Positions 426-60,878 of a DNA stretch of 64,000 nucleotides are shown here, one piece after another. The stretch lies in assembly GCA_026392045.1 (NCBI GenBank), contig JAPLCU010000012.1:41142-105141 (forward strand), in the 5' to 3' direction. Under the pieces are notes generated by a model that searched no databases, was not told the DNA's origin, and was given only the letters and a program-made list of their open reading frames with translations. Positions within the stretch are counted from its first letter, which is position 1. Each line of letters begins with the position of its first letter. The stretch comes from Armatimonadota bacterium. GTDB lineage: Bacteria; Armatimonadota; UBA5829. The position numbers and the translations under genes were made by a program.

Positions 426-531
426 TGTAACACCTGTGCCGGACCATCGGGCCATCATACTATCCGACTATCGGCCAAATTATGGCCTTTTGACCTTAAG
501 ACTTTTACTAGTAACTAGGAGGAATTTTCTT

Positions 532-2355: not shown

Positions 2356-2446
2356 TTGGTCCGATGGCTTGATAGCCTGATAGTTTGATAGTCAGATATT
2401 CATCAGCCATCAGCTTTGAGTTGACGGCTGATGATTTAATCATCTT

Positions 2447-2474
2447 GTTCGGGCGGATTTGCAATCCAGCCCGC
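2447..2474 (-). repeat. REP-like palindromic element, family A (GTTC + CGGGCTGGATTGCAAATCCAGCCCG), inverted orientation
   Basis: GTTCGGGCGGATTTGCAATCCAGCCCGC. Other copies at 6478-6505, 39963-39990 and 42601-42627. Confidence 0.8.
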
Positions 2475-2563
2475 ATTGGCCATCTGGGATCTGCGATCCC
2501 TGTGTATTTCGCATTTTCGCTATTTTTCGCGTTTTCGCGATAATTTGAACCAAAGGAAATGAC

Positions 2564-4030
2564 TTGAGTAAACCAAGAGTAAGATTCGCGCCGAGCCCCA
2601 CCGGCTCCCCGCACATAGGCAACATTCGCACCGCCGTATTCGATTATCTTTATGCGCGCCACACAGGCGGCGCTTTCATATTGCGCATTGAGGACACCGA
2701 CCGCGCCAGATTCGTTGAAGGCAGCCTTGAAGAATTGATGGAAGGGCTGCGTTGGGTTGGGATGCAATGGGACGAGGGCCCCGAGGTTGGCGGCGAATAT
2801 GGCCCATATTGGCAGAGTGAGCGGTTGGAGAATTACTCCAAATACGCGCAGCAGCTTATAGACAGCGGCAGGGCTTATTACTGCTACTGCACCAAGGAGC
2901 GGCTCGAAGAAATGCGAAAAGGGCAGGAGGCTGCAAAGCTGCCGCCGGGCTACGACCGCCGCTGCCGCGCGCTTACTCCCGAAGAGCGAGAAGCGGCCGC
3001 CGCAGAGAACTCCAACCCGGTTATACGGTTCGCGATGAAACGCGAGGGTCGGACGGAGTTTGACGACGTTATTCGCGGACGGGTTGGCTTCGAAAACTCG
3101 CTGCAGGACGATTTTGTGATGATAAAGGCGGATGGTTTTCCAACCTACCATTTCGCTGCGGTCGTTGACGACCACCTGATGGAAATTACGCATGTGGTAC
3201 GCGGCGATGAGTGGATTTCGAGCGCGCCTAAGCACGTGCAGCTCTACGAGGCTTTGGGCTGGGAGGCGCCGGTTTGGGTGCATCCGCCACTAATTCTCGA
3301 CACCACCGGCAAAAAGCTCTCCAAGCGCAGCGAGACCCAGACGACGTTCACCTACTACCGCGAGGCTGGGTATTTGCCGGATGCCATGCTCAATTTCCTG
3401 GCGACGATGGGCTGGAGTTCGGGCGAAGACAGAAAGCTTTTCAGCCGCGCCGAACTGATTGAGAAGTTCAGCTTCGAGGGTATTGTAAATCATCCGGCGA
3501 TTTTCGACCTGGCCAAGCTCAACGATCTTAATGGCGAGTATATTCGCATGATGAGCGTGGATGAGCTGGCTGAGATGATTTTGCCGTGGGTGCAGAAGGC
3601 TGGATATTTGGGCGAAAACCCGACCGCCAAAGATCTGGCTTATATCAAGGAGGTTACCGCGCTTATTCAGGATAGAATGGTGACCCTCGGGGAAGCTCCC
3701 GATTTGGTTTCATATTTCTATAACTGCGGTTTTGATTATGATGAAAAAGGAATAAAAAAGCATTTAGCGAAGGATACTACGCCTGCTTTGTTGAAGGCAA
3801 TTATAAGTAAGCTTTCAGATGTTTCTGATTGGAATACGGAGCGCATAGAGGCAGCGGTGCGCGAAGCCGGAGCAAGCGTAAGCATGGAAGGCGGGCATGT
3901 GATTCATCCGGTGCGAATGTCTATAACAGGCCGCACATGGGGGCCAGGCCTTTTCGAGCTTATGAAAATAATCGGAAAAGAGCGCTGCCTGACCAGGCTC
4001 CAAAAAGCCATAGATAAGTTTGGAGTGTAG
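2564..4030 (+). CDS. gltX: Glutamyl-tRNA synthetase
   Basis: Class I aaRS with HIGN (PHIGNIRTA) and KLSKR (KMSKS-type) motifs. TTG start. Confidence 0.9.
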   Translation: MSKPRVRFAPSPTGSPHIGNIRTAVFDYLYARHTGGAFILRIEDTDRARFVEGSLEELMEGLRWVGMQWDEGPEVGGEYGPYWQSERLENYSKYAQQLIDSGRAYYCYCTKERLEEMRKGQEAAKLPPGYDRRCRALTPEEREAAAAENSNPVIRFAMKREGRTEFDDVIRGRVGFENSLQDDFVMIKADGFPTYHFAAVVDDHLMEITHVVRGDEWISSAPKHVQLYEALGWEAPVWVHPPLILDTTGKKLSKRSETQTTFTYYREAGYLPDAMLNFLATMGWSSGEDRKLFSRAELIEKFSFEGIVNHPAIFDLAKLNDLNGEYIRMMSVDELAEMILPWVQKAGYLGENPTAKDLAYIKEVTALIQDRMVTLGEAPDLVSYFYNCGFDYDEKGIKKHLAKDTTPALLKAIISKLSDVSDWNTERIEAAVREAGASVSMEGGHVIHPVRMSITGRTWGPGLFELMKIIGKERCLTRLQKAIDKFGV

Positions 4031-4105
4031 AGTAAGAAGAATCCCTTCCCTTCTTTCCGCTTTCCACTCTCCACTTTCCGCTATTATGAAGGAGAATTAA
4101 AGAAA

Positions 4106-4429
4106 ATGAGCGCAGCTCCTGCAGTTACAGCAGCAAATTTTGAGGAAGAAGTATTAAAGTCGGCAATTCCCGTATTGGTGGATTTTTGGGCTGAATGGTG
4201 TGGTCCGTGCAAGGCATTGGGCCCGACCATAGACCTGATTGCAGCCGAATACGAAGGCAAGGCGAAGATTCTCAAGCTGGACGTGCAAACCGAAGCCGCA
4301 TTGGCCGGAAAATACGGCGTGCAGAGCATTCCCACCCTGCTGATCTTCAAAGACGGCGAGATTAAAAGCCGCCTGGTAGGCCTCCACCCCAAACCCGACA
4401 TTACCGCCGAGATAGATAAGCAGCTTTAA
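4106..4429 (+). CDS. trxA: Thioredoxin
   Basis: 107 aa with the WCGPC active site. AAGGAG RBS upstream. Confidence 0.9.
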   Translation: MSAAPAVTAANFEEEVLKSAIPVLVDFWAEWCGPCKALGPTIDLIAAEYEGKAKILKLDVQTEAALAGKYGVQSIPTLLIFKDGEIKSRLVGLHPKPDITAEIDKQL

Positions 4430-4461
4430 GCTTTCGGCTAACCGATTTCGAAGACAATGCT

Positions 4462-4493
4462 GCGCAAGAATAATTCTTGCGCGGCCTTTTTTA
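4462..4493 (+). terminator. Rho-independent terminator downstream of trxA
   Basis: Hairpin GCGCAAGAATAATTCTTGCGC followed by a TTTTTT run. Confidence 0.7.
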
Positions 4494-4594
4494 TGCCTCC
4501 AGTGAACCCTTTCGTCAATTTCTGCAACTAAACAAATAGAGAAGGGAAAAACGGCGGATTGAGTGAAGGCGCCTATAGAACACAAGGTCCGATA

Positions 4595-4646
4595 GCATTC
4601 CCTGACACGAGGTGTTTCGGGATTTGAGCGAAGCGGAAATCCCGAA
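4595..4646 (+). repeat. Family C composite intergenic repeat (cattcc-type flank + TTTCGGGATTTGAGCGMAGCGGAAATCCCGAAA)
   Basis: The core is an imperfect palindrome. Copies at 10655-10740 (inverted), 24678-24728 (a variant with an insertion) and 26217-26279. Confidence 0.75.
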
Positions 4647-4660
4647 ATATTTGGAGATGT

Positions 4661-5230
4661 ATGGCTGATTACCGTGATGAGAAAAAACTGGTTGCAGGGC
4701 TGAGGGCGGGGGAGCGGGAGGCGTATGAGCGGCTTCTGGACCTCTACCAGGATAAGGTCTACGGCATGGCTCGCAGAATGGTTGGCGGGCTGGATGCCGA
4801 GGACGCGGCGCAGGATGCGCTGGTGGAAATCTGCAACTCGGTAAAGGGCTTCAAAGGCAGGTCCAGCCTCGCTACCTGGGTATACAGGGTGGCGATGAAT
4901 GTCTGCCTGGAGCGCCGCCGCATGCGCCGTCTGGAGACCGTGCCAATCGAGGAAAATACGCTTGATAGGCAAGAAAATTCAAGCTCTGAGCCGGGAGCGG
5001 TTGCGGTGAGAAACGAAACGAAAACCACGGTAAATAACGCCATAGATTCTCTGCCGGATATTCACCGGGATGTGGTAATTTTGCATGAATTGCATGGGCT
5101 TACCTACAGCGAATGCGCTGAAGCGCTCAGTTGCCCGGTGGGAACGGTAAAAAGCAGGCTCTCGAACGCCTTTCGAGCGCTGCGAGAGCAACTTCGGGAA
5201 TACGCATCAGAAGGCGGGTTAGAACTATGA
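4661..5230 (+). CDS. ECF (sigma-70 family, group 4) RNA polymerase sigma factor
   Basis: 189 aa with sigma-70 regions 2 and 4 (DAAQDALVEI..., C-terminal HTH GLTYSECAEALSCPVGTVKSRL). Confidence 0.85.
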   Translation: MADYRDEKKLVAGLRAGEREAYERLLDLYQDKVYGMARRMVGGLDAEDAAQDALVEICNSVKGFKGRSSLATWVYRVAMNVCLERRRMRRLETVPIEENTLDRQENSSSEPGAVAVRNETKTTVNNAIDSLPDIHRDVVILHELHGLTYSECAEALSCPVGTVKSRLSNAFRALREQLREYASEGGLEL

Positions 5231-6468
5231 ATTGCCGGATGGTGAAAAGCGAGATTAAAGCATATATTGACGGCGAGCTTGGGCGGGTAATGCGCTGGCG
5301 CGTCAGCCGACACCTTGCAAGCTGCGTCGAGTGCCAAATGGAGGCTAAATCTATGACGGACCTTACAAATGAAGTTAATAATATAAGTGATATCACTGCC
5401 CCCAGCGGGCTGCGGGAGAAAGTGCTCGGAAAACTTAATTTTGAGCCTGTGGTCAGAGCAGGTTGGAAGTGGCCGTATAAAACCAGGCCGATTGCTGTGG
5501 CGGGGTTGCTGGCGATTGCTATAGTGGCGGCTGCGGTAGTGATACCGATGTTTGGACCTGCGAAGGTGCAAAGCAGGAAGATTGCGAGTGCGGGCAAAAT
5601 GCAAGCAAAAACAGAGCAAACAGCCGCTACTAGGCCAGAGGAATCACTGAAGTTCGACACACCTGCCGACACCATTTCCGCCAAAGTTGATAACTTCATA
5701 TATAACAAAGCACCTGACCATGCACCCATGATCGCCGTAGGAAAGACGGTGCCTGCGCGAAACGCGGCTAAATTTAGCGACGGTCACATAAACCCGCAGC
5801 TCATGATAATCAAAAACGCCGAAATGACTGTGCTGGTTAAGGATTTCTCTAAAGCCAATGATGCGGCGGTTTTTGTGGCTAAGTCTCTTGGCGGGTTTGT
5901 GACTGATTCTTCGGTGAGCTCTGATGAGGGCGCGCCTGTTTCGGGTTCGATGTGCCTGCAAGTTCCTGTGGATTCTTTTGAAAACGCAATTGAAAAGCTC
6001 GGAAAGCTTGGCAAAGTGACAGTTAAAAACCTGACGGGCGAGGATGTGACCGGCCAGGTGGTGGATATTGATTCTCGGCTTCGCAATAAACGCGCCGAAG
6101 AGCGGCAGTATTTGGAAGTTATGAACAAAGCCAGGCGCATCGGGGATATTATGAATGTCTCAAACGAGCTTTACCGCGTGCGCGGCGAGATAGAAGAAAT
6201 GGCTGGTCAGATAAAGCAGTTGAAGAGCTCCGCCGCCATGAGCACAATAAATCTGACCCTGACCGAGAAACCTAAGCCTAAAGCCGCACCGATGGGCTTC
6301 ATTCAAAAGAGTTTTACGGGCGCTGTGGCTTCGCTGGTGGGCTCTTTAAGCAAGATCGCAGGTATCATTATCTGGCTGGTAGTATATTCGCCATTCTGGG
6401 GCCTGCCGGTTTTCGGTTATCTATACTGGAGAAGACGAACGCCGATTGCGGGGACAAATGAAGCATAG
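5227..6468 (+). CDS. Anti-sigma factor with N-terminal zf-HC2 motif, one TM helix and a C-terminal DUF4349-like coiled-coil domain
   Basis: ATG at 5227 overlaps the sigma-factor stop (ATGA). An Hx3Cx2C motif (HLASCVECQ) is present. A hydrophobic helix (IAVAGLLAIAIVAAAVVI) follows. The C-terminal region matches the DUF4349 pattern. Confidence 0.7.
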   Translation: MNCRMVKSEIKAYIDGELGRVMRWRVSRHLASCVECQMEAKSMTDLTNEVNNISDITAPSGLREKVLGKLNFEPVVRAGWKWPYKTRPIAVAGLLAIAIVAAAVVIPMFGPAKVQSRKIASAGKMQAKTEQTAATRPEESLKFDTPADTISAKVDNFIYNKAPDHAPMIAVGKTVPARNAAKFSDGHINPQLMIIKNAEMTVLVKDFSKANDAAVFVAKSLGGFVTDSSVSSDEGAPVSGSMCLQVPVDSFENAIEKLGKLGKVTVKNLTGEDVTGQVVDIDSRLRNKRAEERQYLEVMNKARRIGDIMNVSNELYRVRGEIEEMAGQIKQLKSSAAMSTINLTLTEKPKPKAAPMGFIQKSFTGAVASLVGSLSKIAGIIIWLVVYSPFWGLPVFGYLYWRRRTPIAGTNEA

Positions 6469-6477
6469 ATGCTTTTG

Positions 6478-6505
6478 CGGGCTGGATTGCAAATCCAGCC
6501 CGAAC
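6478..6505 (+). repeat. REP-like palindromic element, family A
   Basis: CGGGCTGGATTGCAAATCCAGCCCGAAC, a perfect 26-bp palindrome plus GAAC tail. Intergenic. Confidence 0.8.
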
Positions 6506-6558
6506 AGATAGAACGATTTAGCTTGAAGGCTTATCATGCTGCTCATCCTTCGAGACCC

Positions 6559-10757: not shown

Positions 10758-12224
10758 CTATCCCTTTGCCACTCCCAGCGGCCGCATTTTGGCCACTATT
10801 CTGGAAATATCTGCGCCCTGGCAGGTTTCCACTACGTCGGCTACGTCTTTATAGGCATACGACGCTTCTTCTGAAAGAGTGTCCCTGCCCTTTGCTTTCA
10901 CAACAATTCCTCTGGCGGCAAGTTCTTCCTGAACGGCTTTACCGGTCATCTTCTTGATGGCAGCGTGCCTGCTCATGACTCGACCGGCGCCGTGGCAGGC
11001 GCTTCCCCAGGTAAGCTTCATCGAGGTCTCGGTGCCTACGAGCAGGAACGAATATCTGCCCATGTCTCCAGGCACTATCACAGGTTGGCCGACCTTGCGA
11101 TATTGCTTTGGAATATTTTCATTGCCTGGCCCAAAAGCTCTGGTCGCGCCTTTTCGGTGGACGCAGAGTTTTTTGAGCTTGCCGTCGACCTCATGATGCT
11201 CGATTTTGGCCATGTTGTGCGCAACATCGTAAACCTGATTCAAACCTAACTTATACGCGCCCGCCCCTAATACCTTCTCAAAACTTTCTCGCACCCAATG
11301 CGCGATCGCCTGACGATTTGCCCAGGCGAAGTTTGCCGCGCAAGCCATAGCTCCAAGATATTGCTGTCCCTCTGGCGAAGTGATCGGCGCGCAGGCCAGT
11401 TGGCGGTCTGGGATCGATATATTGTATTTTTGAGCCGCTCTTTGCATGACATGCAGCGAATCTTCGCAGACCTGATGGCCAAAACCCCGGCTGCCGGTGT
11501 GAATCATGACGGTGATCTGGCCGGGTTCGGTGATGCCGAAAATGTGTGCAATTTCAACGTCATATATCTCTTCAACTACCTGAATTTCCATAAAATGGTT
11601 CCCCGCGCCAAGAGTGCCGAGTTGGGGCCTGCCGCGCTTTATGGCTTCTTTGCTGATGACATCCGGATCGGCAAAATCCATCGCGCCGCCCTGCTCGCTC
11701 ACTTCGAGGTCCTCGGCCCACCCCATTCCATGCTCAACCATCCACTTTGCGCCCTTGCGCATAACCTGCTTTAGCTCCTGATCATCAAGACGAAGTTTAC
11801 CCTCGCCGCCGACACCGGTCGGGACGTTCATATAAAGCTGGTCGATGAGGTCTGAAACGCGGCCTTTCACGTCTTTTAGAGTGAGATCGCTGCGAAGTAA
11901 TCGAACGCCGCAGTTGATGTCGTAACCCACCCCGCCAGGTGAAACCACGCCGGTTTCGTAGTCCATCGCGGCAACTCCGCCTATGGGGAACCCGTAGCCC
12001 CAGTGAATATCCGGCATAGCCATCGATTGGCCGACTATCCCCGGCAGGAACGCGACATTTGCGACCTGCTCCAGGGCTTCGTCCTGCATAATCTGCTGAA
12101 GCATGCTTTCAGTGGCAAAAACCACGCCGTCTGTCCGCATTCCAGACTTATAGCTCTGTGGAATCCGCCACCTGTAATCATCTATTTTTTGGAGTATTTG
12201 AGTCCACTCAGGCATATTATTCAC
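10758..12224 (-). CDS. rtcB: RNA-splicing ligase RtcB
   Basis: 488 aa with conserved metal and GTP-binding motifs (GAGNHFMEIQ, HTGSRGFGHQV). Confidence 0.9.
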   Translation of the reverse strand: MNNMPEWTQILQKIDDYRWRIPQSYKSGMRTDGVVFATESMLQQIMQDEALEQVANVAFLPGIVGQSMAMPDIHWGYGFPIGGVAAMDYETGVVSPGGVGYDINCGVRLLRSDLTLKDVKGRVSDLIDQLYMNVPTGVGGEGKLRLDDQELKQVMRKGAKWMVEHGMGWAEDLEVSEQGGAMDFADPDVISKEAIKRGRPQLGTLGAGNHFMEIQVVEEIYDVEIAHIFGITEPGQITVMIHTGSRGFGHQVCEDSLHVMQRAAQKYNISIPDRQLACAPITSPEGQQYLGAMACAANFAWANRQAIAHWVRESFEKVLGAGAYKLGLNQVYDVAHNMAKIEHHEVDGKLKKLCVHRKGATRAFGPGNENIPKQYRKVGQPVIVPGDMGRYSFLLVGTETSMKLTWGSACHGAGRVMSRHAAIKKMTGKAVQEELAARGIVVKAKGRDTLSEEASYAYKDVADVVETCQGADISRIVAKMRPLGVAKG

Positions 12225-12809
12225 CTATTTACAGTTGTCGCAAATGTCTGATTTTCCATCGTGCAAATTGTTGCACATCGAACACTTACGCCACCCATTT
12301 TCGAGCTTAGATTTCTCTAATTTCTTGCTTGTCAGGACTGCATGCGCGATGCGTTTTGCCAGCTCTTCCGAAGGGCTGATAGATGCGACTTTTTGGGCCA
12401 GTTCGGATGCTAACAAATCGATTTCTACGGCCTCTATATCGTCTTTTGGTATGTTGGGCTTATTTGCGGCCAGAGAGGCCTCCAGCGCCTTTTTGAAACC
12501 CCTGGAAGAGAAGCGGATGTCAGTGACCACTTTGCTGCCCGCCGCTTTGTTGAGTTCTTTGATTATATGCTGCTTATGGAAGGTGCATTCGTTTGCCCAT
12601 GCGCTGCTTTTGCAGCAAACATATAAAATGCCCTCCTGGATTCTTTCGGCAACGGTGACAGCGGCAATGTGCGTACCCACGACCTGCTTCCATTTTATCA
12701 CGGCCTGATACTGCATTATTTTATGGCGAAGCCCCATTTCTTCCAAAGACCTGTTTACCAAGCCCCCGAGTCTGTTGAAATTGCCTCTTCTGAAATCCGA
12801 TCTTCTCAT
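12225..12809 (-). CDS. DUF721 (DciA-like, helicase-loader family) protein with a C-terminal Cys4 zinc ribbon
   Basis: MRRSDFRRG N-terminus and SSAWANECTFHKQHIIKELN core typical of DUF721. The usual recF-downstream position. C-terminal CSMCN...CDNCK. Confidence 0.7.
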   Translation of the reverse strand: MRRSDFRRGNFNRLGGLVNRSLEEMGLRHKIMQYQAVIKWKQVVGTHIAAVTVAERIQEGILYVCCKSSAWANECTFHKQHIIKELNKAAGSKVVTDIRFSSRGFKKALEASLAANKPNIPKDDIEAVEIDLLASELAQKVASISPSEELAKRIAHAVLTSKKLEKSKLENGWRKCSMCNNLHDGKSDICDNCK

Positions 12810-13924
12810 ATTGCCGTAACCTTGCCCGATTTTACCTCAAAAATAGCTGCCGAGCTCGTGGCGACATCTCGGATATCGTCCAGGCTGGTGGTGGTTATGA
12901 AAGTCTGACACTTGCCCAGCATTATCTCTAAAATGCGCGCTCGGCGTGTTTCGTCGAGTTCCGCCATTACATCATCCAACAACACAACCGGACTTTCCTC
13001 CGCAGATTCTTCCATAAGCTCGATTTCCGCAAGTTTAATTGCGATAGCCGCAGACCGCTGCTGGCCCTGGGAGGCGAATTCTTTGGCGGGAAAATTGTTG
13101 ACGCTTAGAAGAATATCATCCCTGTGAGGGCCCGCGGATGTTGTTCCCCTGAAAATGTCATTCTCTCGCCTGGATGCCAGTTTTCTTGCATAAGCGGATT
13201 CAATCTCTTTTTCAGTATCTGAAGCGGAGCATTCTATATTGGGTTTATAAGATATTTTGAAATCTTCGGATTGATCCGTGAGCAATGCATAGATTCTGGC
13301 AGCCGCTGCGGCTAGAAAATCTATAAATTTGGCACGGCGGTGGATCACGCTCGCTCCATATTGGCAGAGCTGAGAATCCCACATTTCCAAGTCTGGCGCT
13401 TTCGCGGAACCTTTATTAATTTCCTTCAGGAGATTGTTTCTCTGATCCAGGACCCTTTTATAACGCCCGAGAGCATAAATATATTGAGGGCGGATTTGGG
13501 CGATTTCCAGATTGAGAAATCGCCTGCGCAGCGATGGTTCGCCTCTGACCATATCTATGTCTGAATTGCTGAAAATTACTGCGTTTAATTGACCTATTAT
13601 GTCCCCGATCTTCGGGGTTTTGACTTTGTTTATCTTAACAGCCTTTTTTTCTTGCCTATTGAGGATAATCTCTAAAATTGCATCGCTTCTTGCTGATCTT
13701 GTGATTTCCACACAAGCTCTGGCATTGATATCCCCTATCTTTATCATGTCCATATCTCGAGATGTCCTATGAGATTTACTCGTCGCCAAGAGATAAAGAG
13801 CTTCAAGTATTGCGCTTTTTCCCTGCGCATTAGGACCCACGAGAATGTTCAACCCCTTAGAGGGCTTGAATTCTAAATGCTCATAATTCCGAAAGTTAGT
13901 CAGACAGATCGTATCAATATACAT
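12806..13924 (-). CDS. recF: DNA replication and repair protein RecF
   Basis: Walker A GPNAQGKSAILEAL and SMC-like signature, 372 aa. The stop overlaps the start of the downstream DUF721 gene. Confidence 0.9.
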   Translation of the reverse strand: MYIDTICLTNFRNYEHLEFKPSKGLNILVGPNAQGKSAILEALYLLATSKSHRTSRDMDMIKIGDINARACVEITRSARSDAILEIILNRQEKKAVKINKVKTPKIGDIIGQLNAVIFSNSDIDMVRGEPSLRRRFLNLEIAQIRPQYIYALGRYKRVLDQRNNLLKEINKGSAKAPDLEMWDSQLCQYGASVIHRRAKFIDFLAAAAARIYALLTDQSEDFKISYKPNIECSASDTEKEIESAYARKLASRRENDIFRGTTSAGPHRDDILLSVNNFPAKEFASQGQQRSAAIAIKLAEIELMEESAEESPVVLLDDVMAELDETRRARILEIMLGKCQTFITTTSLDDIRDVATSSAAIFEVKSGKVTAI

Positions 13925-14341: not shown

Positions 14342-15745
14342 CTAGCCTCTTGAGCCGGTGATTTGGTTGGTTAATTCCGTTATTATGGCTTGGAATGATT
14401 TGTCCGTGGCTAATTTCCCTTCGACCTTTTTGCAGGAGTGCATGACAGTGGTGTGGTCCTTGCCGCCAATAGCTTTTCCGATTGCGGGTAGGGAATAATC
14501 TGTGAGTTCGCGCATCAGATACATAGCGATCTGACGAGGCGCCACTATGTTTTTGCTGCGGCATTTACCTTTGAGATCGGTTAGCTCCACGTAAAACTTC
14601 TTTGAGACTGCGTTCAAGACTTTTTGAGCGTCGACGACCGTCGGGGCAGCGTCACCAAAATTTTTGCTTAGGACCTCTTCAGCTAAAGAAAGCGTGACAG
14701 CAGTCTTCATCAGCGATGCATAAGCATGCAGTGTTATTAGCGCGCCCTCGAGCTGCCTTATGTTCGTTCTTATCAGTTTTGCGATATAGAGAATGACGTC
14801 GTCCGAGAGGGTCATGTTCTCGCACTCTGCCTTGGTCTGCAAAATTGCCATGCGGGTTTCGAGGTCCGGCGGGGAGATGTCTGCGAGCATGCCGCACTGG
14901 AACCTGGAAAGAAGCCTGCTATCCAGCTGCAGGTCTTTGGGCGCACGGTCGCTTGTTAATACAATCTGCTTGCCCATGTCGTAGATGGCGTTGTATGTGT
15001 GAAAAAATTCTTCTTCCGTGCGCTCCTTACCCACCAAAAACTGAATGTCATCCACCAGCCACACATCAATGCTGCGATATTGCCGCCTGAACTCAGCCGT
15101 GCGATGCTCTCTTAGAGAGGTTATATAGTGATAGGTGAATGCCTCGCCCGATACATAAGCCACCTTTGCGTCGGGCGACTTGGCTAGGACAGTCTGCCCC
15201 AGAGCATGCATCAGGTGTGTTTTGCCAAGCCCCGCGCCGCCATAAATGAAAAGCGGGTTGTAGGTCTTGCCGGGGTTTTCAGAGATTGCCATGGCGCAAG
15301 CATGCGCGAGCCTGTTTGTGGGTCCAACAACGAAGTTATCGAAGTTATACTGGTTGTTGAGCGGCAGAGAAATAGGCTCTTCGTCGTGTTTAGGCTGCGG
15401 TTTTGGCTTTTGCGGGAGTGTTTCCGTGAGAATAACGGGCTCATCGGATTCTGAAAAGTCTACCCTGAGCTGGAGTTTTCTTTCAAGTTGTGTTTCCAGG
15501 ATTTCTTTGATGAGCGGCAGATGTTTGCTCTCCAGCCAGTGCTTTGCAAATCGGCTGTTTGTGGTGATCATGACCAGATTGCCATCCACCGAGACGGGCT
15601 TTGCAGTTTTGATCCAGCTGTCGAACGAGGGCTTGTTGACATGCTTAGATAGCACCTCAAGCGCGCACTCCCACGCATTCTGGAGCGCCACATAGGCATC
15701 GTCCACCCCTAATTGTAGCTGCTGATCCGACAAAGTATTCTCCAA
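14342..15745 (-). CDS. dnaA: Chromosomal replication initiator protein DnaA
   Basis: AAA+ Walker A GGAGLGKTHL, a sensor motif, and the C-terminal DnaA DNA-binding domain (...VAPRQIAMYLMRELTDYSLPAIG...). Confidence 0.95.
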   Translation of the reverse strand: MENTLSDQQLQLGVDDAYVALQNAWECALEVLSKHVNKPSFDSWIKTAKPVSVDGNLVMITTNSRFAKHWLESKHLPLIKEILETQLERKLQLRVDFSESDEPVILTETLPQKPKPQPKHDEEPISLPLNNQYNFDNFVVGPTNRLAHACAMAISENPGKTYNPLFIYGGAGLGKTHLMHALGQTVLAKSPDAKVAYVSGEAFTYHYITSLREHRTAEFRRQYRSIDVWLVDDIQFLVGKERTEEEFFHTYNAIYDMGKQIVLTSDRAPKDLQLDSRLLSRFQCGMLADISPPDLETRMAILQTKAECENMTLSDDVILYIAKLIRTNIRQLEGALITLHAYASLMKTAVTLSLAEEVLSKNFGDAAPTVVDAQKVLNAVSKKFYVELTDLKGKCRSKNIVAPRQIAMYLMRELTDYSLPAIGKAIGGKDHTTVMHSCKKVEGKLATDKSFQAIITELTNQITGSRG

Positions 15746-27340: not shown

Positions 27341-29146
27341 TTACAGCGACTCCACGTATTCGGCAAGGTCGTCGAGCTGTTTTTTGCTCAACTTCGAGGT
27401 GTTACCGTGGCGGTTACCCTTGTTGTGGGTGGTCAGCACGTCTTTGATTGAAGCAGCGGAGCCATCGTGAAGATACGGGCCAGTGCGCCAAACCTCAACG
27501 AGGGTCGGATTGTCGAACTTGTGATCCTCACGGTCGAGCTCGCCCTTAGTGCCGACATCATAGGATTTCAGATCGGTATAAAGCCCAGATGAATGACAGG
27601 AAACGCATCCCACATTCTCGCTCATAAAGAGTTTTTTGCCTCTCAATGCCGAGGCGGAAAGTTTGCCATTTGCCAAGCGTGGGCTTGGATACGCAGTCAG
27701 CGACTTAAGGTAAGCATCAATCGCTTTCGCATCAGATTCCGGTCGAGTTGCGAACAGGATAAATCTGATACCAGACCGAACTGCTGTCTCAGCCTTGTCG
27801 CGAACCGCCAGGCTCATCACAGGAGGAGTGCGGTGTGCCAGAAGCATGCTCCTTGAGTTTTTAGGGTTGCCGATGCCGTCGTTGAGCAGGTCCCAGTTGA
27901 GGCCGTCCGTTCTTGCATCAGGATGGCAGCTTAAACAGCTCTGCCAACCCTGGAAACAGATCGACGCGTCACTATAAAGCATTTCACCCTTGCGCTGCTC
28001 AGACACTGCGACCTTCGGCCCCAGTGCAATAGACCCGCGAACCACGGCATCCTTGAGATTGACAATACTTATCGAATCAGAGAAATATTCACCTACATAA
28101 GCATTATCGCCCAACACCATAACCGACCTTGGGCCGATGCCATTCACATGAACGCGCTTGCGAATGTCAGACATAAACGCCAAATCGTTCGGGACATCAT
28201 CAGGATTCGCCTTAGCAAGCTTGGCAAGCATCGCCTGAGTATCTATAATGCTCAGCTCATGGGTTCCGGCGGAGGTAATGCAAATTGTCTTGCCATCAGC
28301 AGAGAACGCAACCGCCCAGGGGTTGGCTGCGCCCGCGTCTATGTCGTCAAGCAAAACTGTGTTAACGAGCTTGCGGGCGCCGATGTCTATGATGCTCATC
28401 GCATTGGTGTTCATCCATCCGCGCTCGAGCTGGGTGGTTGGAAGGCTATATCGGCCAACAATATGCCCCACACAGGCATACTTGCCATCAGGAGAAATGG
28501 CCACACCATGCAGGCTGGTACTGCCGTTGGGCAACTGAATATTCTTGGCGAGTTTATTCGTTGTGGTATCAATCACGCTGACGCAGGCAGCTACAACATC
28601 GGCATTGGCGCTTCCGGTAGGCAGCAGATTTGAAACGACCAGAGACTTGCCATCCGGAGTAATCGCCGCCCCAATTGGCTCACGCTTAACAGCTATGCGG
28701 CTAGTGGTTTTGCCGGTGGCAAGGTCTATAAATGCTACTTCATTCAAGAACCGATTGCATACATAGAGCTTTTTGCCGTTACCAGCCAAAACTGGAGCGC
28801 ATGCGCCAGACCCGGCCTTAATGGTCTTCACAATTTTGCCTGTTTTGGCGTCAATCACACAAACAAATCCGCTTGGCAAATCGCAGGTAACATACAACTG
28901 CGCGTTGCCGGCAGCTATTCCGTTGGGATTTCCTGCAACGGCTATGCTCTTTACGATCTTGCCTGATGCCGAATCGACACAAAGCGCTTTCTTGCCTGTT
29001 GTGCATGCAATATACAATACTTTGCCGCTCTGTGCCATAGCGCATGGTGACAGATATTTTGGGGCGGGCACGGGTGTCTTGGCCGTCGCTGTAAAGGCAA
29101 GAACCATAGAAATGACCACAATGCTCCACATGGTAAACTTCTTCAC
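27341..29146 (-). CDS. Secreted fusion of a YVTN-type beta-propeller with a C-terminal di-heme cytochrome c peroxidase (CCP/MauG family) domain
   Basis: Signal peptide. N-terminal repeats of the GKIVKTI...YVTCD type. C-terminal domain with two CxxCH motifs (CLSCH, CVSCH) and the CCP hallmark WRTGPYLHDGS. Confidence 0.65.
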   Translation of the reverse strand: MKKFTMWSIVVISMVLAFTATAKTPVPAPKYLSPCAMAQSGKVLYIACTTGKKALCVDSASGKIVKSIAVAGNPNGIAAGNAQLYVTCDLPSGFVCVIDAKTGKIVKTIKAGSGACAPVLAGNGKKLYVCNRFLNEVAFIDLATGKTTSRIAVKREPIGAAITPDGKSLVVSNLLPTGSANADVVAACVSVIDTTTNKLAKNIQLPNGSTSLHGVAISPDGKYACVGHIVGRYSLPTTQLERGWMNTNAMSIIDIGARKLVNTVLLDDIDAGAANPWAVAFSADGKTICITSAGTHELSIIDTQAMLAKLAKANPDDVPNDLAFMSDIRKRVHVNGIGPRSVMVLGDNAYVGEYFSDSISIVNLKDAVVRGSIALGPKVAVSEQRKGEMLYSDASICFQGWQSCLSCHPDARTDGLNWDLLNDGIGNPKNSRSMLLAHRTPPVMSLAVRDKAETAVRSGIRFILFATRPESDAKAIDAYLKSLTAYPSPRLANGKLSASALRGKKLFMSENVGCVSCHSSGLYTDLKSYDVGTKGELDREDHKFDNPTLVEVWRTGPYLHDGSAASIKDVLTTHNKGNRHGNTSKLSKKQLDDLAEYVESL

Positions 29147-55816: not shown

Positions 55817-56605
55817 ATGGACGATAAAATGACTAATATTCTAGCTGTTGTAAACCAAAAAGGCGGCGTGGGGAAGACCACGACGGCGGTAAACCTGGCT
55901 GCTTGCCTGGCTGTCGCCGGAAAGAAGGTATTGCTTGTGGACACCGATCCGCAGGGAAATGCCACGAGCGGTGTGGGTGTTGTCAAATCTCACCTGGACC
56001 ACTGCATTTATGATGTCCTGATCAATGATGTGCCCCTTGAGCAGGTCATTGTACACACAGACATCGCTGGACTGGACCTGGTGCCGGCAAAGCTGGACCT
56101 GGCTGGCGCTGACATTGAGTTGATGTCGATGATGTCTCGCGAAACCAAGCTCAAGCAGGCAATAGGGCGCGTGAGTGAGAATTATGATTTCGTTATCATC
56201 GATTGCCCTCCTTCGCTTGGTCTGCTAACGGTAAACGTATTGGCGGCAGCGAGCCATGTGGTGATGCCGATACAATGCGAATATTATGCACTTGAAGGGA
56301 TTAGCCAGCTTCTGAGAACGGTGGAACTAGTTAAGCAGCACCTGAACCCGGACCTGGACATTGCCAAAGTACTATTGACTATGTTCGACTACCGGACGAA
56401 TCTCTCGCAGCAGGTTGCTGAAGAAGTGCATAGATTCTTCGGCGAAAAGGTATCGAAGGTTGTTGTGCCGAGAAATGTTAGACTTAGCGAGGCGCCCAGC
56501 CATGGTATGCCTATCATCACATACGATCCTAAATCAAAGGGAGCGGAAGCCTACACAAAATTCGCCGAGGAGGTAATTGTATTTGGAACGCAGGGGTCTC
56601 GGTAA
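55817..56605 (+). CDS. parA: Chromosome partitioning ATPase ParA/Soj
   Basis: Deviant Walker A KGGVGKTTT, 262 aa. Confidence 0.9.
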   Translation: MDDKMTNILAVVNQKGGVGKTTTAVNLAACLAVAGKKVLLVDTDPQGNATSGVGVVKSHLDHCIYDVLINDVPLEQVIVHTDIAGLDLVPAKLDLAGADIELMSMMSRETKLKQAIGRVSENYDFVIIDCPPSLGLLTVNVLAAASHVVMPIQCEYYALEGISQLLRTVELVKQHLNPDLDIAKVLLTMFDYRTNLSQQVAEEVHRFFGEKVSKVVVPRNVRLSEAPSHGMPIITYDPKSKGAEAYTKFAEEVIVFGTQGSR

Positions 56606-57455
56606 AGGGCTTGGTGCCTTAATTCCTGGTGCGGAGAGAGGCGATCGTCAGGGGGGGCCTGAGATCGAGCTTCAGCGCATCAGCGCAAATCCATATCAGC
56701 CTAGAGAAACATTTAGCGACGAGAAGTTTCAGGAGCTTGTTAACTCGGTAAGAGTTCATGGCATCCTGCAGCCAATTGTGGTACGACCGAAAGGCGATGG
56801 CAATTTTGAGCTTGTCGCGGGGGAGAGACGGTTCCGGGCCGCAAATGCTGCGGGGCTCAGTCGCATTCCTGCTGTGGTAAGAGAACTGACTAATGAGCAG
56901 AGCCTTCAGGTGGCGCTCATTGAGAACCTGCAGCGCGAAGATATTAACGCTGTTGAAGCCGCCAATGCTTACAAGCGCTTGGCCGAGGAGTTCAGTCTAT
57001 CGCAGGAGGACTTGGCATTCAGTCTTGGAAAGAGTAGATCATCCATCGCTAACACGATTCGTCTACTTAACTTGCCGGAGGTGGTTCTGGAACACTTGCG
57101 CATCGGCAGAATCTCTGAAGGCCATGCACGCGCCATTCTATCAGTCGATAGCGATAATGCCCAAATCGAAGTTTGTGACCGAGTAATGAGCAGAGGGCTT
57201 TCAGTACGCGAGTCGGAACGACTCGCCCGCGAATGGTCGAAGAGCCGAATGGGAAAATCTTCTGGTAGCAATGTTTCACGTGAAACATTATCCAGAGAAC
57301 AGGACCCAAACATGCTTGCTATCGAAGCCCGGCTGCGCGAAGTCTTCGGAACTAAAGTCAATCTCGTTCGCAACAAGGAGCGCGGCAGAATTGAAATTGA
57401 ATTCTATTCTGACGACGATATGGAACGAATATTACTTCTTCTTGCAGGCGCCTAG
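56577..57455 (+). CDS. parB: Chromosome partitioning protein ParB/Spo0J
   Basis: GERRFRAA (ParB box II), an HTH, and an N-terminal LGKGLGALI. Overlaps the parA 3' end. An alternative TTG start lies at 56583. Confidence 0.85.
   Translation: MYLERRGLGKGLGALIPGAERGDRQGGPEIELQRISANPYQPRETFSDEKFQELVNSVRVHGILQPIVVRPKGDGNFELVAGERRFRAANAAGLSRIPAVVRELTNEQSLQVALIENLQREDINAVEAANAYKRLAEEFSLSQEDLAFSLGKSRSSIANTIRLLNLPEVVLEHLRIGRISEGHARAILSVDSDNAQIEVCDRVMSRGLSVRESERLAREWSKSRMGKSSGSNVSRETLSREQDPNMLAIEARLREVFGTKVNLVRNKERGRIEIEFYSDDDMERILLLLAGA
57272..57287. promoter_or_regulatory. parS: parS centromere site (perfect TGTTTCACGTGAAACA) inside the 3' part of parB
   Basis: Exact 16-bp palindromic match to the conserved bacterial parS consensus. 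Confidence 0.85.
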
Positions 57456-57691: not shown

Positions 57692-59092
57692 CTACGGAGT
57701 GGCTATAACGATCTTCCCTTCGGTCTCTATGGTTCGGCCACCGACCGTCACGGACATTTTTACGGGCACGTCGCCTGACACGCCAAGCGGCGGCTTCGCC
57801 TTGAATGACGCTGAACCTAATCCATCGCCCTGGGGCGCCGAGAACTCCTTAGTTCCCACGTTGCGCCACAGCTCCCAACCTGTAGGGAGGCTGATCTTTG
57901 CAGTTCCGCGAATTCTGCCCCGCGTATTATTTCGCACAACCACTGCGAACGTAATATCCTTAACGTCTGGTTTGATCTTTTTTGATGGAAGCTTGAGCTC
58001 AATCTCAAACGGCTCAACGACCTCGAAGCTAATCAACGCGCTTCCGAGCCGTTCTGTTCTAGACCGCACTTCAGCGCCAATAGCCCAGCTCCCAAGCCTC
58101 ATATCGCTGGGAACGATAGATTTGACCTCATGGACCAAGTGACTTTTGGGAGATATTCCTTCTGTGCGCACCTTTTGGCTGCTCAAAAACTCGCCAGCTT
58201 TTCCCTCGCCGCCTATCACATAGCTCCGAACGTCAACGCTCTCTGCGCCCGTGTTTGTCAGGTGGAATTTCCCTACCACTTCATCGCCCCGCGCAACGCG
58301 CTCGTTCCTGAGCACAAATCCCAGGTCCAGCGGCTTGAGCGCGGCAAATTTCTTGGTAACCAGAGTACATTCTCGTGTATCCCCAATATCTTTGGTAGGT
58401 ATCCACCCACCAAATGCATCGCCTGCGTTCAAGTTTATCTGAAGCCCTATCTTGCGGTCCGGTGTCATCTTAAGTCCCTTGATCAACATAGCCGGGATCT
58501 TCATCTCAATCATATTAGTCGTGTCGGTGCGCCCGTTTTTTATATCTATTAGCGAAGCTTCATCTTGTGAAACCGGTGCAGCTATGGGAATCTTAGTATT
58601 TCTTGAATTATATTTGCTCACAATGAGCGTCGTAGCGCCGCTGGCGCCGCCTGTAGTCTTGAACTCGTAGTTGTCGTCACCGTTGAACCAACCATCCGAA
58701 TTGCAATCAATTACAGCCTGAAGATCAATAGGTTTGCTGGATTTCACGCCTATGTAGAGATTTGCTCCGTCCCAATCCACGAATGTGGTCGCGTCCCAAC
58801 CTGTGGCTGCAAACGCATAGAACGCGTCCCATTCACCATCCTCGATCATACCATCGATCACGGGAGTTCTTCTAAATATCGAAGTATCCGCCATTATTGC
58901 CGGCGCCACGAATGCAGTTGCGGCTGGCGCTGGCGCTGGTGTTACAACGGGTGGGGTGGATTCCGCTGCAGGGGGCTCTGTCGCTGCGGGTGGCGGGTTG
59001 GTCGGTGGTGTTTCCTGCGCCACGAGATAACCAGCCGGCATCGCGAGCATCGCTACCACGATCAAGATCAAAATACACTTAAATCTACTCAT
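57692..59092 (-). CDS. Hypothetical secreted protein with a Pro/Thr/Ala-rich N-terminal linker
   Basis: Signal peptide, a PT-rich low-complexity region, then a roughly 380-aa region of predicted beta-rich character. I recognise no family. Confidence 0.5.
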   Translation of the reverse strand: MSRFKCILILIVVAMLAMPAGYLVAQETPPTNPPPAATEPPAAESTPPVVTPAPAPAATAFVAPAIMADTSIFRRTPVIDGMIEDGEWDAFYAFAATGWDATTFVDWDGANLYIGVKSSKPIDLQAVIDCNSDGWFNGDDNYEFKTTGGASGATTLIVSKYNSRNTKIPIAAPVSQDEASLIDIKNGRTDTTNMIEMKIPAMLIKGLKMTPDRKIGLQINLNAGDAFGGWIPTKDIGDTRECTLVTKKFAALKPLDLGFVLRNERVARGDEVVGKFHLTNTGAESVDVRSYVIGGEGKAGEFLSSQKVRTEGISPKSHLVHEVKSIVPSDMRLGSWAIGAEVRSRTERLGSALISFEVVEPFEIELKLPSKKIKPDVKDITFAVVVRNNTRGRIRGTAKISLPTGWELWRNVGTKEFSAPQGDGLGSASFKAKPPLGVSGDVPVKMSVTVGGRTIETEGKIVIATP

Positions 59093-59369
59093 CTCTTCCT
59101 CCTGAAGAATCTCCGTTTATCGGCAGTCGATAACGGCCATAATCCTTATCCCTGTTGTTGATTATAGAACAGGCAGGACGGCTACGTCAACAACCTCAAT
59201 GCATCAAACGTCGAGACTTTGCGCCTTTTCTACTTAGACGCTTCCAGTATTCGTGTGTTGCAGCAATCAACGACTATTTTGTGATCCATGTAAAAACTGC
59301 CTCGCTTGATGTTTGACCGCCTCAGCTATTTGCTATAATGTTTAATATGCAACAATCAAGGAGGCGCGT

Positions 59370-60878
59370 ATGGTGGGTAATCTTAGGATTTTATCTCTGG
59401 CAATTCTCTTGACAACGGCCCTCGCGGCGCCTTCGTGGTCAGGTGAAGATGTCACGCTTTCCGACTCCGCCGGCAATACGCTGAAGCATTCACAGATCGA
59501 AATGGTTGACTATAAAAAAACCTGCGGTAACTGTCACGACGTCGCCGATAAAGCTGCGTCCGTGCATTTCAACAGGGAAAGCGACAGCTTAGACGCTCAA
59601 TCCGGCGATTGTTTCAGCTGCCATCTGAGCACGAAGCCCAGTGCGTTTAGTTCAAGCGGCACAATCGATAAGCTCTCACTTAAGCCGAGCAATGCCGCCT
59701 GCGAATCCTGCCACAGCAGTATGCAAGACACTAATGTCGGTAACGCTCATAACGGTATGACTTGTGTAGATTGTCATCAGAACGCCGGCCACCGTGCCTT
59801 GAGCTCGCCGTCGTGCGTCGGATGCCACAATGCCAAATCCACTGCGCCAAAGCCCTTACATCGCGGATTCACGGCCCTTCATATAAAAAAGATCGCCTGC
59901 GAGACCTGCCATGCTGGTCGTTCCGACCATTCTGGTAATATTTCCTTTGCAATTCGCAACGGAAGGATCTTGCCAATCGATACCGAGACGCCCATCCATC
60001 ACGATGTGGCGGTCTCATCTCTCGCCCTGGGCGCCACAGGGTGCCAGAATTGCCATTCGAATACCTCTCAATTCTTCTTCGGCGCAAATGGCGGAAGCAT
60101 TCCGAATTACCGTGCAATGGGGCTGACAAGAAAAGACATAATGTCGGGCGATATCCGCGAGCGCCTCGTAAAACCGCTTTCAGTATGGCTATTTGTTATC
60201 ATTTTCGCGCTCAGCGCCCTCCATTATGCCATATTCGGGCCGCATAGAGTAAAAATGGTCCGTGGAGAGCCAAGCATCCTGCGCTTTACCATCTACGAGC
60301 GAATTGTGCACTGGCTAACAACGGCCAGCTTCGCATTTCTGGCGATAACCGGTGTTGCATTTCTGCTTCATCTGGAGACACCGGACGGGCGTTGGCGCGG
60401 CATTCACGGGCAGGTGGGTGCTATTTTTATGATCTCACTGGTTGGGATGCTGGTTATATGGTGGAAAAATGCGCGCTTCACGCCGTGTGACATACATTGG
60501 CTTCGCCGATTTGGCGGCTATCTCTGGCTGAGGGGGAGTTGTCCGGCTGAAAAGTTCAATGCCGGCCAAAAACTCTTCTTTTGGCTAATCGTTTTCTGCA
60601 CAGGGATTTTGATGTGCGCCACGGGATGGATGCTGGTGCATGGGAAGGGTTCTGCGGCATCTTGGACGTTTACGCTTCACGACATCGCTGCCGTCATCAT
60701 GATCGCAGGAATTCTCGGCCATCTATATCTGAGTGTTTTTGCAAATCAGGGCTCGATCAGCGGCATTCTTACAGGACGTGTGACACGCAGCTGGGTCACG
60801 CACCATCATCCGATCTGGTTGTTACATATTGAGCCCGGCAGCAAGCCAACCGAGCATACAGACAGCAAACTTATTTAA
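59370..60878 (+). CDS. Fusion of a periplasmic 7-heme c-type cytochrome with an FdnI/HydC-like di-heme cytochrome b membrane domain (CbcL-like quinol-oxidising electron conduit)
   Basis: Signal peptide. Seven CxxCH motifs (CGNCH, CFSCH, CESCH, CVDCH, CVGCH, CETCH, CQNCH). A C-terminal 4-TM domain carries the Ni/Fe-hydrogenase/formate dehydrogenase cytochrome b signatures (YERIVHW..., NAGQKLFFW, conserved His). Strong promoter at 59312-59339 and AAGGAGG RBS. Confidence 0.65.
   Translation: MVGNLRILSLAILLTTALAAPSWSGEDVTLSDSAGNTLKHSQIEMVDYKKTCGNCHDVADKAASVHFNRESDSLDAQSGDCFSCHLSTKPSAFSSSGTIDKLSLKPSNAACESCHSSMQDTNVGNAHNGMTCVDCHQNAGHRALSSPSCVGCHNAKSTAPKPLHRGFTALHIKKIACETCHAGRSDHSGNISFAIRNGRILPIDTETPIHHDVAVSSLALGATGCQNCHSNTSQFFFGANGGSIPNYRAMGLTRKDIMSGDIRERLVKPLSVWLFVIIFALSALHYAIFGPHRVKMVRGEPSILRFTIYERIVHWLTTASFAFLAITGVAFLLHLETPDGRWRGIHGQVGAIFMISLVGMLVIWWKNARFTPCDIHWLRRFGGYLWLRGSCPAEKFNAGQKLFFWLIVFCTGILMCATGWMLVHGKGSAASWTFTLHDIAAVIMIAGILGHLYLSVFANQGSISGILTGRVTRSWVTHHHPIWLLHIEPGSKPTEHTDSKLI

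Follow-up and report, generated by a model that had tools for sequence, protein, structure and literature searches.

In a 64-kb stretch of genomic DNA from an Armatimonadota bacterium (contig JAPLCU010000012.1; its 64,000 nucleotides are henceforth termed the window), a gene on the forward strand at positions 59370 to 60878 codes for a 502-residue protein in which a seven-heme cytochrome c domain is fused to a membrane-embedded di-heme cytochrome b. Based on profile matches, ligand conservation and the affinities of its transmembrane (TM) helices, we propose that this fusion protein is a composite of the FdnH membrane anchor and the FdnI subunit of formate dehydrogenase-N (Fdh-N), in which a heptaheme domain replaces the Fe-S domain of FdnH. 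In functional terms, we consider it somewhat probable that it is an inner-membrane quinone-pool:cytochrome c oxidoreductase built from Fdh-N parts, which would more likely oxidize menaquinol than reduce menaquinone. The features of the gene, all on the forward strand, are:

59370..60878, forward strand: coding sequence of the heptaheme c/FdnH-anchor/FdnI fusion, 502 residues, as in the list of open reading frames (ORFs) and equal to MCX6343816.1
59370..59441, forward strand: Sec-type signal peptide, residues 1-24, recognized as a hydrophobic N-terminus whose position is conserved in the family alignment
59442..60155, forward strand: predicted periplasmic heptaheme cytochrome c domain, residues 25-262, from the motif count and the Pfam models Cytochrome_C7 and Cytochrom_c3_2
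59523-59537, 59610-59624, 59700-59714 and 59763-59777, forward strand: CxxCH motifs 1-4, at residues 52, 81, 111 and 132
59814-59828, 59898-59912 and 60042-60056, forward strand: CxxCH motifs 5-7, at residues 149, 177 and 225
60165..60242, forward strand: linker helix TM0, residues 266-291, in which H285-Y..FGP is invariant; a homologue of the FdnH C-terminal membrane anchor
60276..60821, forward strand: FdnI-type four-helix di-heme cytochrome b, residues 303-484, from PF01292, TIGR01583 and 1kqf_C
60555..60572, forward strand: F-N-A-G-Q-K motif, residues 396-401, in the predicted cytoplasmic TM2-TM3 loop, from the 1kqf_C alignment and invariant in the family
59313..59339, forward strand: promoter-like site read from the sequence, with a -35 element TTGACC (59313-59318) and an extended -10 element TGcTATAAT (59331-59339) separated by a 15-nt spacer
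59357..59363, forward strand: Shine-Dalgarno sequence AAGGAGG, 6 nt before the ATG, read from the sequence

The ORF is exactly as delimited in a first-pass annotation of this DNA, which had described seven CxxCH motifs and a C-terminal cytochrome b domain; the two motifs that it quoted, YERIVHW and NAGQKLFFW, are found at residues 309-315 and 397-405. Its count of four TM helices fits the b bundle itself, but five hydrophobic helices follow the heme domain (residues 266-291, approximately 312-335, 346-367, 400-424 and 431-458), the extra one being the linker helix at residues 266-291. Its sequence matches MCX6343816.1, of an Armatimonadota metagenome-assembled genome (MAG), with 100% identity; there it bears the label 'cytochrome b/b6 domain-containing protein'; indeed, both NCBI and JGI annotate the members of this family only generically.

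The assignment of the C-terminal domain to the Ni_hydr_CYTB family, as made in the first-pass annotation, is borne out by the corresponding Pfam profile (PF01292; E 1.4e-18, 67.8 bits against a cut-off of 30.1), and the domain is likewise matched by TIGR01583, the model for the formate dehydrogenase gamma subunit (E 2.5e-31). Escherichia coli FdnI (PDB 1kqf_C) matches the fusion protein with E 2.4e-16 and the profile of the family with E 6.4e-26, and is also the only significant PDB match recovered by Foldseek with the AlphaFold model, in which the b domain is predicted fairly confidently (predicted local distance difference test score, pLDDT, of 70-90). In an alignment of 17 homologues, to which all statements on conservation below refer, H314, H346, H437 and H451 are invariant; in the 1kqf_C alignment they fall on H18, H57, H155 and H169 of FdnI, such that the full set of four heme-b ligands is present in the TM helices. 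Similarly, N397-K401 (NAGQK) aligns with N110-K114 of FdnI, which, going by the Fdh-N structure, we take to be the menaquinone/HQNO-site loop (HQNO, 2-heptyl-4-hydroxyquinoline N-oxide). The Fdh-N structure of Jormakka et al. (2002) is said to have His169, Asn110, Gly112 and Gln113 as its quinone-site contacts.

The linker helix provides the second line of evidence for a derivation from Fdh-N. Besides the four heme-b ligands, H285 within TM0 is also invariant, and the fusion protein displays a feature of the FdnH anchor, namely a single helix with the pattern K-P...HY..GP-K/R placed ahead of FdnI. A translated genome scan (tblastn) returned, in several Desulfuromonadales and other genomes, matches to residues ~264-484 that were spread over two genes; at locus L039 of a Geobacteraceae member the two genes prove to be fdnH and fdnI, within a canonical operon of the order fdnG(Sec)-fdnH-fdnI-fdhE. 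The C-terminal anchor of FdnH from this locus reads IKPLGILGFWGSIGAMLLHYVTIGPKR, and the equivalent TM0 helix of the fusion protein reads VKPLSVWLFVIIFALSALHYAIFGPHR. When a TM0 profile was run against 10,367 six-frame ORFs from loci outside the family, the matches were limited to three positions: the C-terminal end of ~260-residue proteins with two ferredoxin motifs, encoded directly ahead of fdnI; the corresponding helix in larger fusions; and the N-terminal end of helix-plus-b proteins that stand alone. The Pfam model for the anchor, Form-deh_trans (PF09163), matches 11 of the 17 family members with a best E of 1e-4; on the fusion protein alone it gives E 0.039, which is below the Pfam cut-off. 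A phmmer search of the PDB with a 57-residue TM0 segment, which is short and hydrophobic, did not retrieve E. coli FdnH. Given the homology of TM0 to the FdnH anchor, the multiheme domain would thus have taken the place of the Fe-S domain of FdnH.

Compared with E. coli Fdh-N (1kqf), the fusion protein therefore shares the four-helix di-heme b module with its four His and NAGQK loop, the FdnH-type anchor with HY..GP, and the predicted topology, in which the quinone site faces the cytoplasm; it differs in having the anchor and b module in one polypeptide and a seven-heme c domain instead of the four-cluster ferredoxin domain, and in having no FdnG molybdoenzyme gene nearby. Neither FdnG (molybdopterin) nor FdnH (4x[4Fe-4S]) genes were found beside the fusion gene in the window or at eight related loci. 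Hence, the heme domain, rather than a molybdoenzyme, would be the periplasmic redox partner of the b module. Some relatives are labeled by JGI as the gamma subunit of a formate dehydrogenase; we rejected this identification in its literal sense, as no alpha or beta subunit genes occur near any of the loci.

Seven CxxCH motifs in a single ORF are not a chance occurrence, because, when ORF segments of 60 residues or more are taken from all six frames of the window, just one besides this gene (27344-29146, reverse strand, with two motifs) contains any CxxCH at all. All seven motifs are invariant, and seven further His are candidates for distal ligands, with H141, H164 and H171 being invariant, H66, H127 and H211 at least 90% conserved and H210 mostly conserved. 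These residues are consistent with an arrangement in which every heme is bis-His ligated, and we accept that, with each motif carrying a heme as predicted, all seven c hemes are probably of this kind. Cleavage of the signal peptide is predicted at about the junction of SWS and GEDV, with the family consensus having AxA before GEDV.

The family so defined is small and, where its members are labeled, confined to Armatimonadota. A word-indexed search recovered close relatives in approximately 25 clusters with 41-51% identity, nearly all of whose full-length members have seven CxxCH motifs at equivalent positions, and when 1.84 billion representatives were searched exhaustively with a profile, the compact form amounted to no more than about 7-9 clusters at 50% identity. 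Among the GTDB species representatives there is at least one full-length relative, in an Armatimonadota MAG (L006, 46% identity). Three relatives are shortened to five hemes (P0019, at 8001-9182 of L087, P0022 and P0023), with about 100 residues that would hold hemes 6 and 7 gone; of the related genomes, that of L087 shows the closest synteny to the window. In L005 (7364-9068, contig of 2.44 Mb), the gene is divided between a three-heme ORF and a four-heme-plus-b ORF in different frames, which would mark it as a pseudogene or else reflect a frameshift error in long-read sequence.

We then examined the gene neighborhoods of nine family loci, the window included. At five of these (L003, L005, L086, L088 and L089) the gene adjoins genes for a 272-380-residue multiheme cytochrome and a 645-670-residue outer-membrane barrel protein; the split gene of L005, too, lies next to an intact decaheme and barrel pair. 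The cytochrome has ten CxxCH motifs at four of the five loci and eight at L086. That of L089 scores above the cut-off of the DmsE-family model TIGR03508 (244.6 against 192.2), and its relatives are labeled 'DmsE family decaheme' in many Armatimonadota MAGs. Two of the five barrels pass the Pfam MtrB_PioB cut-off of 23 (L088 with 33.7 and L003 with 30.2), and the C-terminal residue of the barrel proteins is aromatic. The recurrent order is a GT2 gene, the barrel and decaheme genes on the minus strand, the fusion gene and an NlpC/P60 gene. The NlpC/P60 flank is retained in the window, L087 and L002, in all three of which the barrel and decaheme pair is absent; the pair is also absent from the 12-kb contig of L006. 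The first-pass annotation had raised the idea of extracellular electron transfer; the conduit beside the gene at five of nine loci lends it support, but the pair is not there in the window, where the fusion gene is an orphan copy. The apparent role of the enzyme in the relatives recalls that of CymA or MtoC with MtrAB, MtoAB and PioAB, in that a gene for a quinone-pool enzyme stands beside genes for a DmsE/MtrA decaheme and an MtrB/PioB barrel (PMC8805035). CymA, a one-helix tetraheme protein that lacks b hemes and has its quinol site on the periplasmic side, is entirely different in fold and origin. At L086 a separate gene at 10940-12316 on the minus strand codes for a 457-residue cytochrome with five CxxCH motifs and a NapC/NirT N-terminal region, and lies beside the barrel gene; this locus thus has two different candidate quinol dehydrogenases.

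In light of these observations we posit the following mechanism. Once the signal peptide is removed, the seven-heme domain would reside in the periplasm, tethered by the FdnH-derived helix, with TM0 running from outside to inside. H314 and H451 would ligate heme bC near the cytoplasmic face and H346 and H437 heme bP near the periplasmic face, the two hemes being stacked, and the quinone site marked by the NAGQK loop and H451 would face the cytoplasm. This topology is predicted because of the FdnI precedent and the positive-inside distribution of charges. Menaquinol oxidized at the cytoplasmic face would then pass its electrons to heme bC, heme bP and the periplasmic heme chain. In most relatives the next carrier would be the adjacent DmsE/MtrA-like decaheme inserted in the MtrB/PioB-like outer-membrane barrel, giving a full route from the quinone pool via the fusion protein and the porin-cytochrome to the cell exterior. 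With outward flow the electrons would move with the membrane potential and protons would be released inside, so that no energy is conserved while low-potential acceptors come within reach. The same logic of n-side, non-conserving quinol oxidation has been proposed for CbcL and CbcBA (10.1101/2022.08.31.506072; 10.1101/2023.05.03.539133). As to the organism, the window also encodes amino-acid and aromatic biosynthesis, GH127 and arabinofuranosidase enzymes, alcohol dehydrogenases (including an iron-dependent one, Fe-ADH) and a chemoreceptor, and the bacterium appears to degrade sugars by fermentation or respiration. Because of this and the outer-membrane conduits of the relatives, we lean, if only a little past even, towards outward flow, that is, menaquinol oxidation, over inward flow.

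Several observations weigh against the proposed menaquinol oxidase and its outward course. The score with TIGR01583 (109.3 bits) lies just under the equivalog cut-off of 115.85, while the homologue P0013 is above it with 118.2 bits; the heme domain is modeled by AlphaFold at low confidence (pLDDT about 50); and the 64-kb window contains no barrel and decaheme pair. Furthermore, none of the NCBI-annotated Armatimonadota matches to the DmsE family carries an accession of the same MAG (MCX63...), many matches being without accession; this negative is a weak one because the MAG may be incomplete. The remaining two points concern direction: FdnI itself runs inward to reduce quinone and the sequence does not fix the direction of flow, and the conduits of the relatives are without an MtrC-like outer cytochrome, thereby resembling the MtoAB/PioAB systems of iron oxidizers.

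The last two points bring up the rival that survives best, although we regard it as unlikely: that the fusion protein is an inward-working cytochrome c:menaquinone reductase, comparable to the Fdh-N redox loop without its dehydrogenase. Electrons from H2 or formate via soluble cytochromes, or from Fe(II) minerals, reduced humics or cathodes via the MtrAB-like conduit, would pass through the b hemes to the cytoplasmic face, where menaquinone would be reduced with proton uptake, generating a proton-motive force as do FdnI and the Qrc complex of Desulfovibrio. The b module and anchor are true homologues of FdnHI, and Fdh-N carries out the reduction and protonation of its quinone at the n-side (PMC10772276); moreover, conduits without an MtrC-type cytochrome are the arrangement used for electron uptake by MtoAB and PioAB (PMC8805035). 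Against this, entry against the membrane potential requires donors well below the potential of menaquinone, and at neutral pH the potentials of most Fe(II) couples are too high for this; at none of the nine loci did genes for a periplasmic hydrogenase or formate dehydrogenase turn up near the family member; and a sugar-degrading heterotroph of the kind indicated by the Fe-ADH and glycosidases of the window needs electron sinks rather than donors.

A second rival, which we hold to be improbable, is that in the source genome the protein is an orphan in function as well, taking no part in outer-membrane transfer and either serving soluble periplasmic enzymes, such as the product of 27344-29146, or persisting as a decaying remnant. 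The missing mtrAB-like pair in the window and the syntenic L087 and L002, the shortened five-heme version at L087 and the lack of a same-MAG DmsE homologue among the annotated Armatimonadota matches are all in line with this. However, all heme motifs, His ligands and quinone-site residues of the protein are intact, which argues against decay, and promoter-like and ribosome-binding sites are present. The first-pass annotation had suggested the protein with the cytochrome c peroxidase (CCP)-like region and propeller (27341-29146) as a periplasmic partner; it is encoded 30 kb away on the opposite strand, nothing ties it to the fusion gene, and we do not retain the suggestion. As noted, the incompleteness of the MAG might also account for the missing pair.

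The protein had also been termed CbcL-like in the first-pass annotation. This is apt in so far as CbcL (GSU0274) likewise carries, within one chain, a periplasmic multiheme c domain at the N-terminus and a di-heme b domain of the FdnI/HydC family (PF01292) at the C-terminus, and also has no Fe-S, flavin or molybdopterin partner; the likeness probably does not extend to homology with CbcL in the strict sense. CbcL has nine hemes, in residues 30-279 (PMC9129911), six TM helices and five candidate His (10.1101/2021.04.15.440034), as opposed to the seven hemes, five helices and four canonical His plus H285 of the fusion protein, and is confined to Desulfuromonadia, whereas the fusion family is found in Armatimonadota. 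CbcL has been proposed to oxidize menaquinol and thereby supply periplasmic cytochromes in extracellular electron transfer (PMC9129911; 10.1101/2022.08.31.506072), and it is needed to reduce acceptors below about -0.1 V.

Sequence comparisons with CbcL drew on machine-read GSU0274 fragments from the supplement of PMC9129911, an imperfect text. Against the b domains of P0116, P0185 and P0221, all marked by the motif EKFDYFAV.WG, these fragments gave Smith-Waterman scores of 61-74, whereas they did not align with the fusion protein (at most 33) or true FdnI, the diagnostic fragment scoring at most 29 with either; on these machine-read fragments, the CbcL b domain is of a distinct subtype marked by EKFDY.AV.WG. 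By phmmer, the b domain of the fusion protein matches true FdnI with 62-113 bits and the P0116-type domains with 0-19 bits, and the P0116-type b domain could not be aligned with it by phmmer or BLAST. In the same vein, TIGR01583 gives 109 bits for the fusion protein against 52-64 bits for the P0116-type b domain, and 1kqf_C matches the latter with E 0.078 against 6.4e-26 for the profile of the family. A genome scan with the fusion protein returned FdnI-type matches only, among the matches listed, and a search with the CbcL-type b domain had no Geobacter among the 120 of 913 matches listed. Hence, the view that the fusion protein is a true orthologue of CbcL minus two hemes, for which the shared domain order, PF01292 b domain and predicted localization might speak (PMC9129911), is very improbable given the seven rather than nine hemes, five rather than six helices, the five-His pattern of CbcL (10.1101/2021.04.15.440034), and the at most 19 bits of CbcL-type b domains against 62-113 bits of true FdnI, with CbcL being known here from machine-read fragments.

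In its list of parts, namely seven hemes, one TM helix and a four-TM b module, the fusion protein is numerically closer to CbcBA (GSU0593-0594) than to CbcL. CbcBA pairs the seven-heme CbcA, whose one C-terminal helix has a conserved His, with the four-helix, di-heme, thiosulfate-reductase-like CbcB; no sequence homology exists between CbcL and CbcBA, and cbcB-cbcA fusions have been reported in Chloroflexi (10.1101/2021.04.15.440034). CbcBA differs in consisting of two proteins in the order b-then-c, rather than one polypeptide in the order c-then-b, and in the affinity of CbcB, compared here by its description, to thiosulfate reductase or hydrogenase b subunits, with three His of its own and the fourth from the CbcA helix; the fusion protein has all four His inside the b bundle in addition to the anchor His. 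Consistent with this, the PhsC model NF011582 gives the fusion protein only 15 bits (cut-off 204), as against 109 bits with the FdnI model. We therefore regard it as an architectural analogue of CbcL, to the extent that the imperfect text of the latter allows, and a numerical one of CbcBA, but by its sequence affinities an orthologue of neither. An affiliation with NapC/NrfH was also considered and rejected, since TIGR03153 gives E 0.14 and neither PF03264 nor Cytochrom_NNT matches the fusion protein; thus, of the two findings that the first-pass annotation had named as contrary to its proposal, namely a lack of the heme-b His and a closer relationship to NrfH/NapC, neither was encountered.

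Beyond the compact family, we found multiheme-FdnI fusions of 800-1150 residues with 6-8 hemes in Planctomycetota/Brocadiia, Coatesbacteria and other MAGs. These share with the compact form the anchor helix, the FdnI module (107-131 bits) and collinear heme domains, and differ in carrying long insertions in the heme domain. At L007, two 908-residue eight-heme FdnI fusions are encoded in tandem (478-3201 and 3786-6509), and their profile hits are identical in the 32-residue TM0 segment and the score. In the Gram-positive sulfate reducers Desulforamulus and Desulfotomaculum (L010, 8761-10618; L011; L012), a gene for a 5-6-heme cytochrome lies immediately upstream of one for a 235-residue anchor-plus-FdnI protein. 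These pairs likewise have the anchor helix at the N-terminus of the b protein, but are encoded by two genes, and their heme proteins are without detectable similarity to the heme domain of the fusion. P0102, P0103 and P0109 are stand-alone proteins of ~240 residues that comprise the anchor helix and FdnI bundle only, with no periplasmic domain; they match the b domain of the fusion protein with 98-120 bits, as high as do the large fusions.

The converse combination is seen in P0116 (L090, 3016-4764; 582 residues) and P0185 (605 residues), which share the N-terminal heme module with the fusion protein (35% identity over residues 5-185, E 1e-32), while their b domain differs from that of the fusion protein and resembles the CbcL type. 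Hence, one periplasmic module occurs on two b modules, which by these sequence relationships indicates an exchange of modules between the periplasmic and membrane parts. Because the same heme module is found on a CbcL-type b domain in these two proteins, quinone-pool:cytochrome c oxidoreductases may evolve by swapping interchangeable periplasmic and membrane modules.

While bc-type fusions as a class are already known from CbcL and the cbcB-cbcA fusions of Chloroflexi, our full-text searches found no literature linking CbcL-like proteins, Mtr-type conduits or extracellular electron transfer to Armatimonadota. The cultured members of this phylum are known as aerobic sugar degraders. A survey of MtrCAB placed these systems in three phyla, Armatimonadota not among them, and named CymA, NetBCD and MtoC as inner-membrane partners (PMC8805035). 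The fusion protein is probably an inner-membrane link between the quinone pool and envelope electron transfer in a phylum not known for such transfer. It is conceivable, at somewhat less than an even chance, that Armatimonadota carry a phylum-specific and hitherto undescribed envelope electron-transfer pathway, with an inner-membrane entry point that arose when a multiheme cytochrome took the place of the FdnH Fe-S domain and the product was fused to FdnI. Of all the steps in extracellular electron transfer, the one performed by the quinol oxidases of the inner membrane is the hardest to predict, and to our knowledge only a few types are recognized, these being CymA, ImcH, CbcL, CbcBA and NetBCD. 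If the proposal is true, a type derived from formate dehydrogenase parts would add markers for electroactive organisms in metagenomes. With regard to sidedness, its quinone site would be inherited from an enzyme with structurally established cytoplasmic-side chemistry, and therefore the question of whether such enzymes dissipate or conserve energy could be tested on a simpler protein than CbcL.

Turning to the surroundings of the gene in the window, the first-pass annotation was correct in stating that it has no adjacent partner cytochromes, as judged from the six-frame CxxCH count and the annotation of the neighbors. The immediate neighbors are non-redox genes, namely those for a divergently encoded 466-residue secreted protein, an NlpC/P60 protein, a cupin and a phosphodiesterase, and the fusion gene looks monocistronic. 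The same annotation had credited it with a strong promoter: the -35 and extended -10 elements are indeed present, but a consensus promoter scan of the window, which accepts spacers of 16-18 nt only, did not report the TTGACC/TGcTATAAT site because its spacer is 15 nt. From the sequence of the site a strong promoter is plausible.

The divergent 466-residue secreted protein (57692-59092, reverse strand) is without a Pfam match and contains a linker rich in Pro and Thr; a syntenic protein of L087, which shares 54% identity with it, has a weak precomputed match to CBM9_1. CBM9-like folds are related to the heme-binding DOMON domains, and by analogy a redox role for this putative CBM9-like protein is conceivable. 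The reverse-strand gene at 27344-29146 codes for a 601-residue protein with an N-terminal YNCE-like beta-propeller and two CxxCH motifs; it also has weak matches to di-heme CCP/MauG and cytochrome c models, and apart from the fusion protein the window encodes no further candidate for a c-type cytochrome. Finally, recF (12809-13924) and dnaA (14345-15745) lie on the reverse strand, and parA and parB (55817-57455) on the forward strand, with parB starting at a TTG that overlaps parA. Based on these two gene pairs the window represents an origin-proximal part of the chromosome; a reversal in the sign of the GC skew lies at about 8 to 14 kb.

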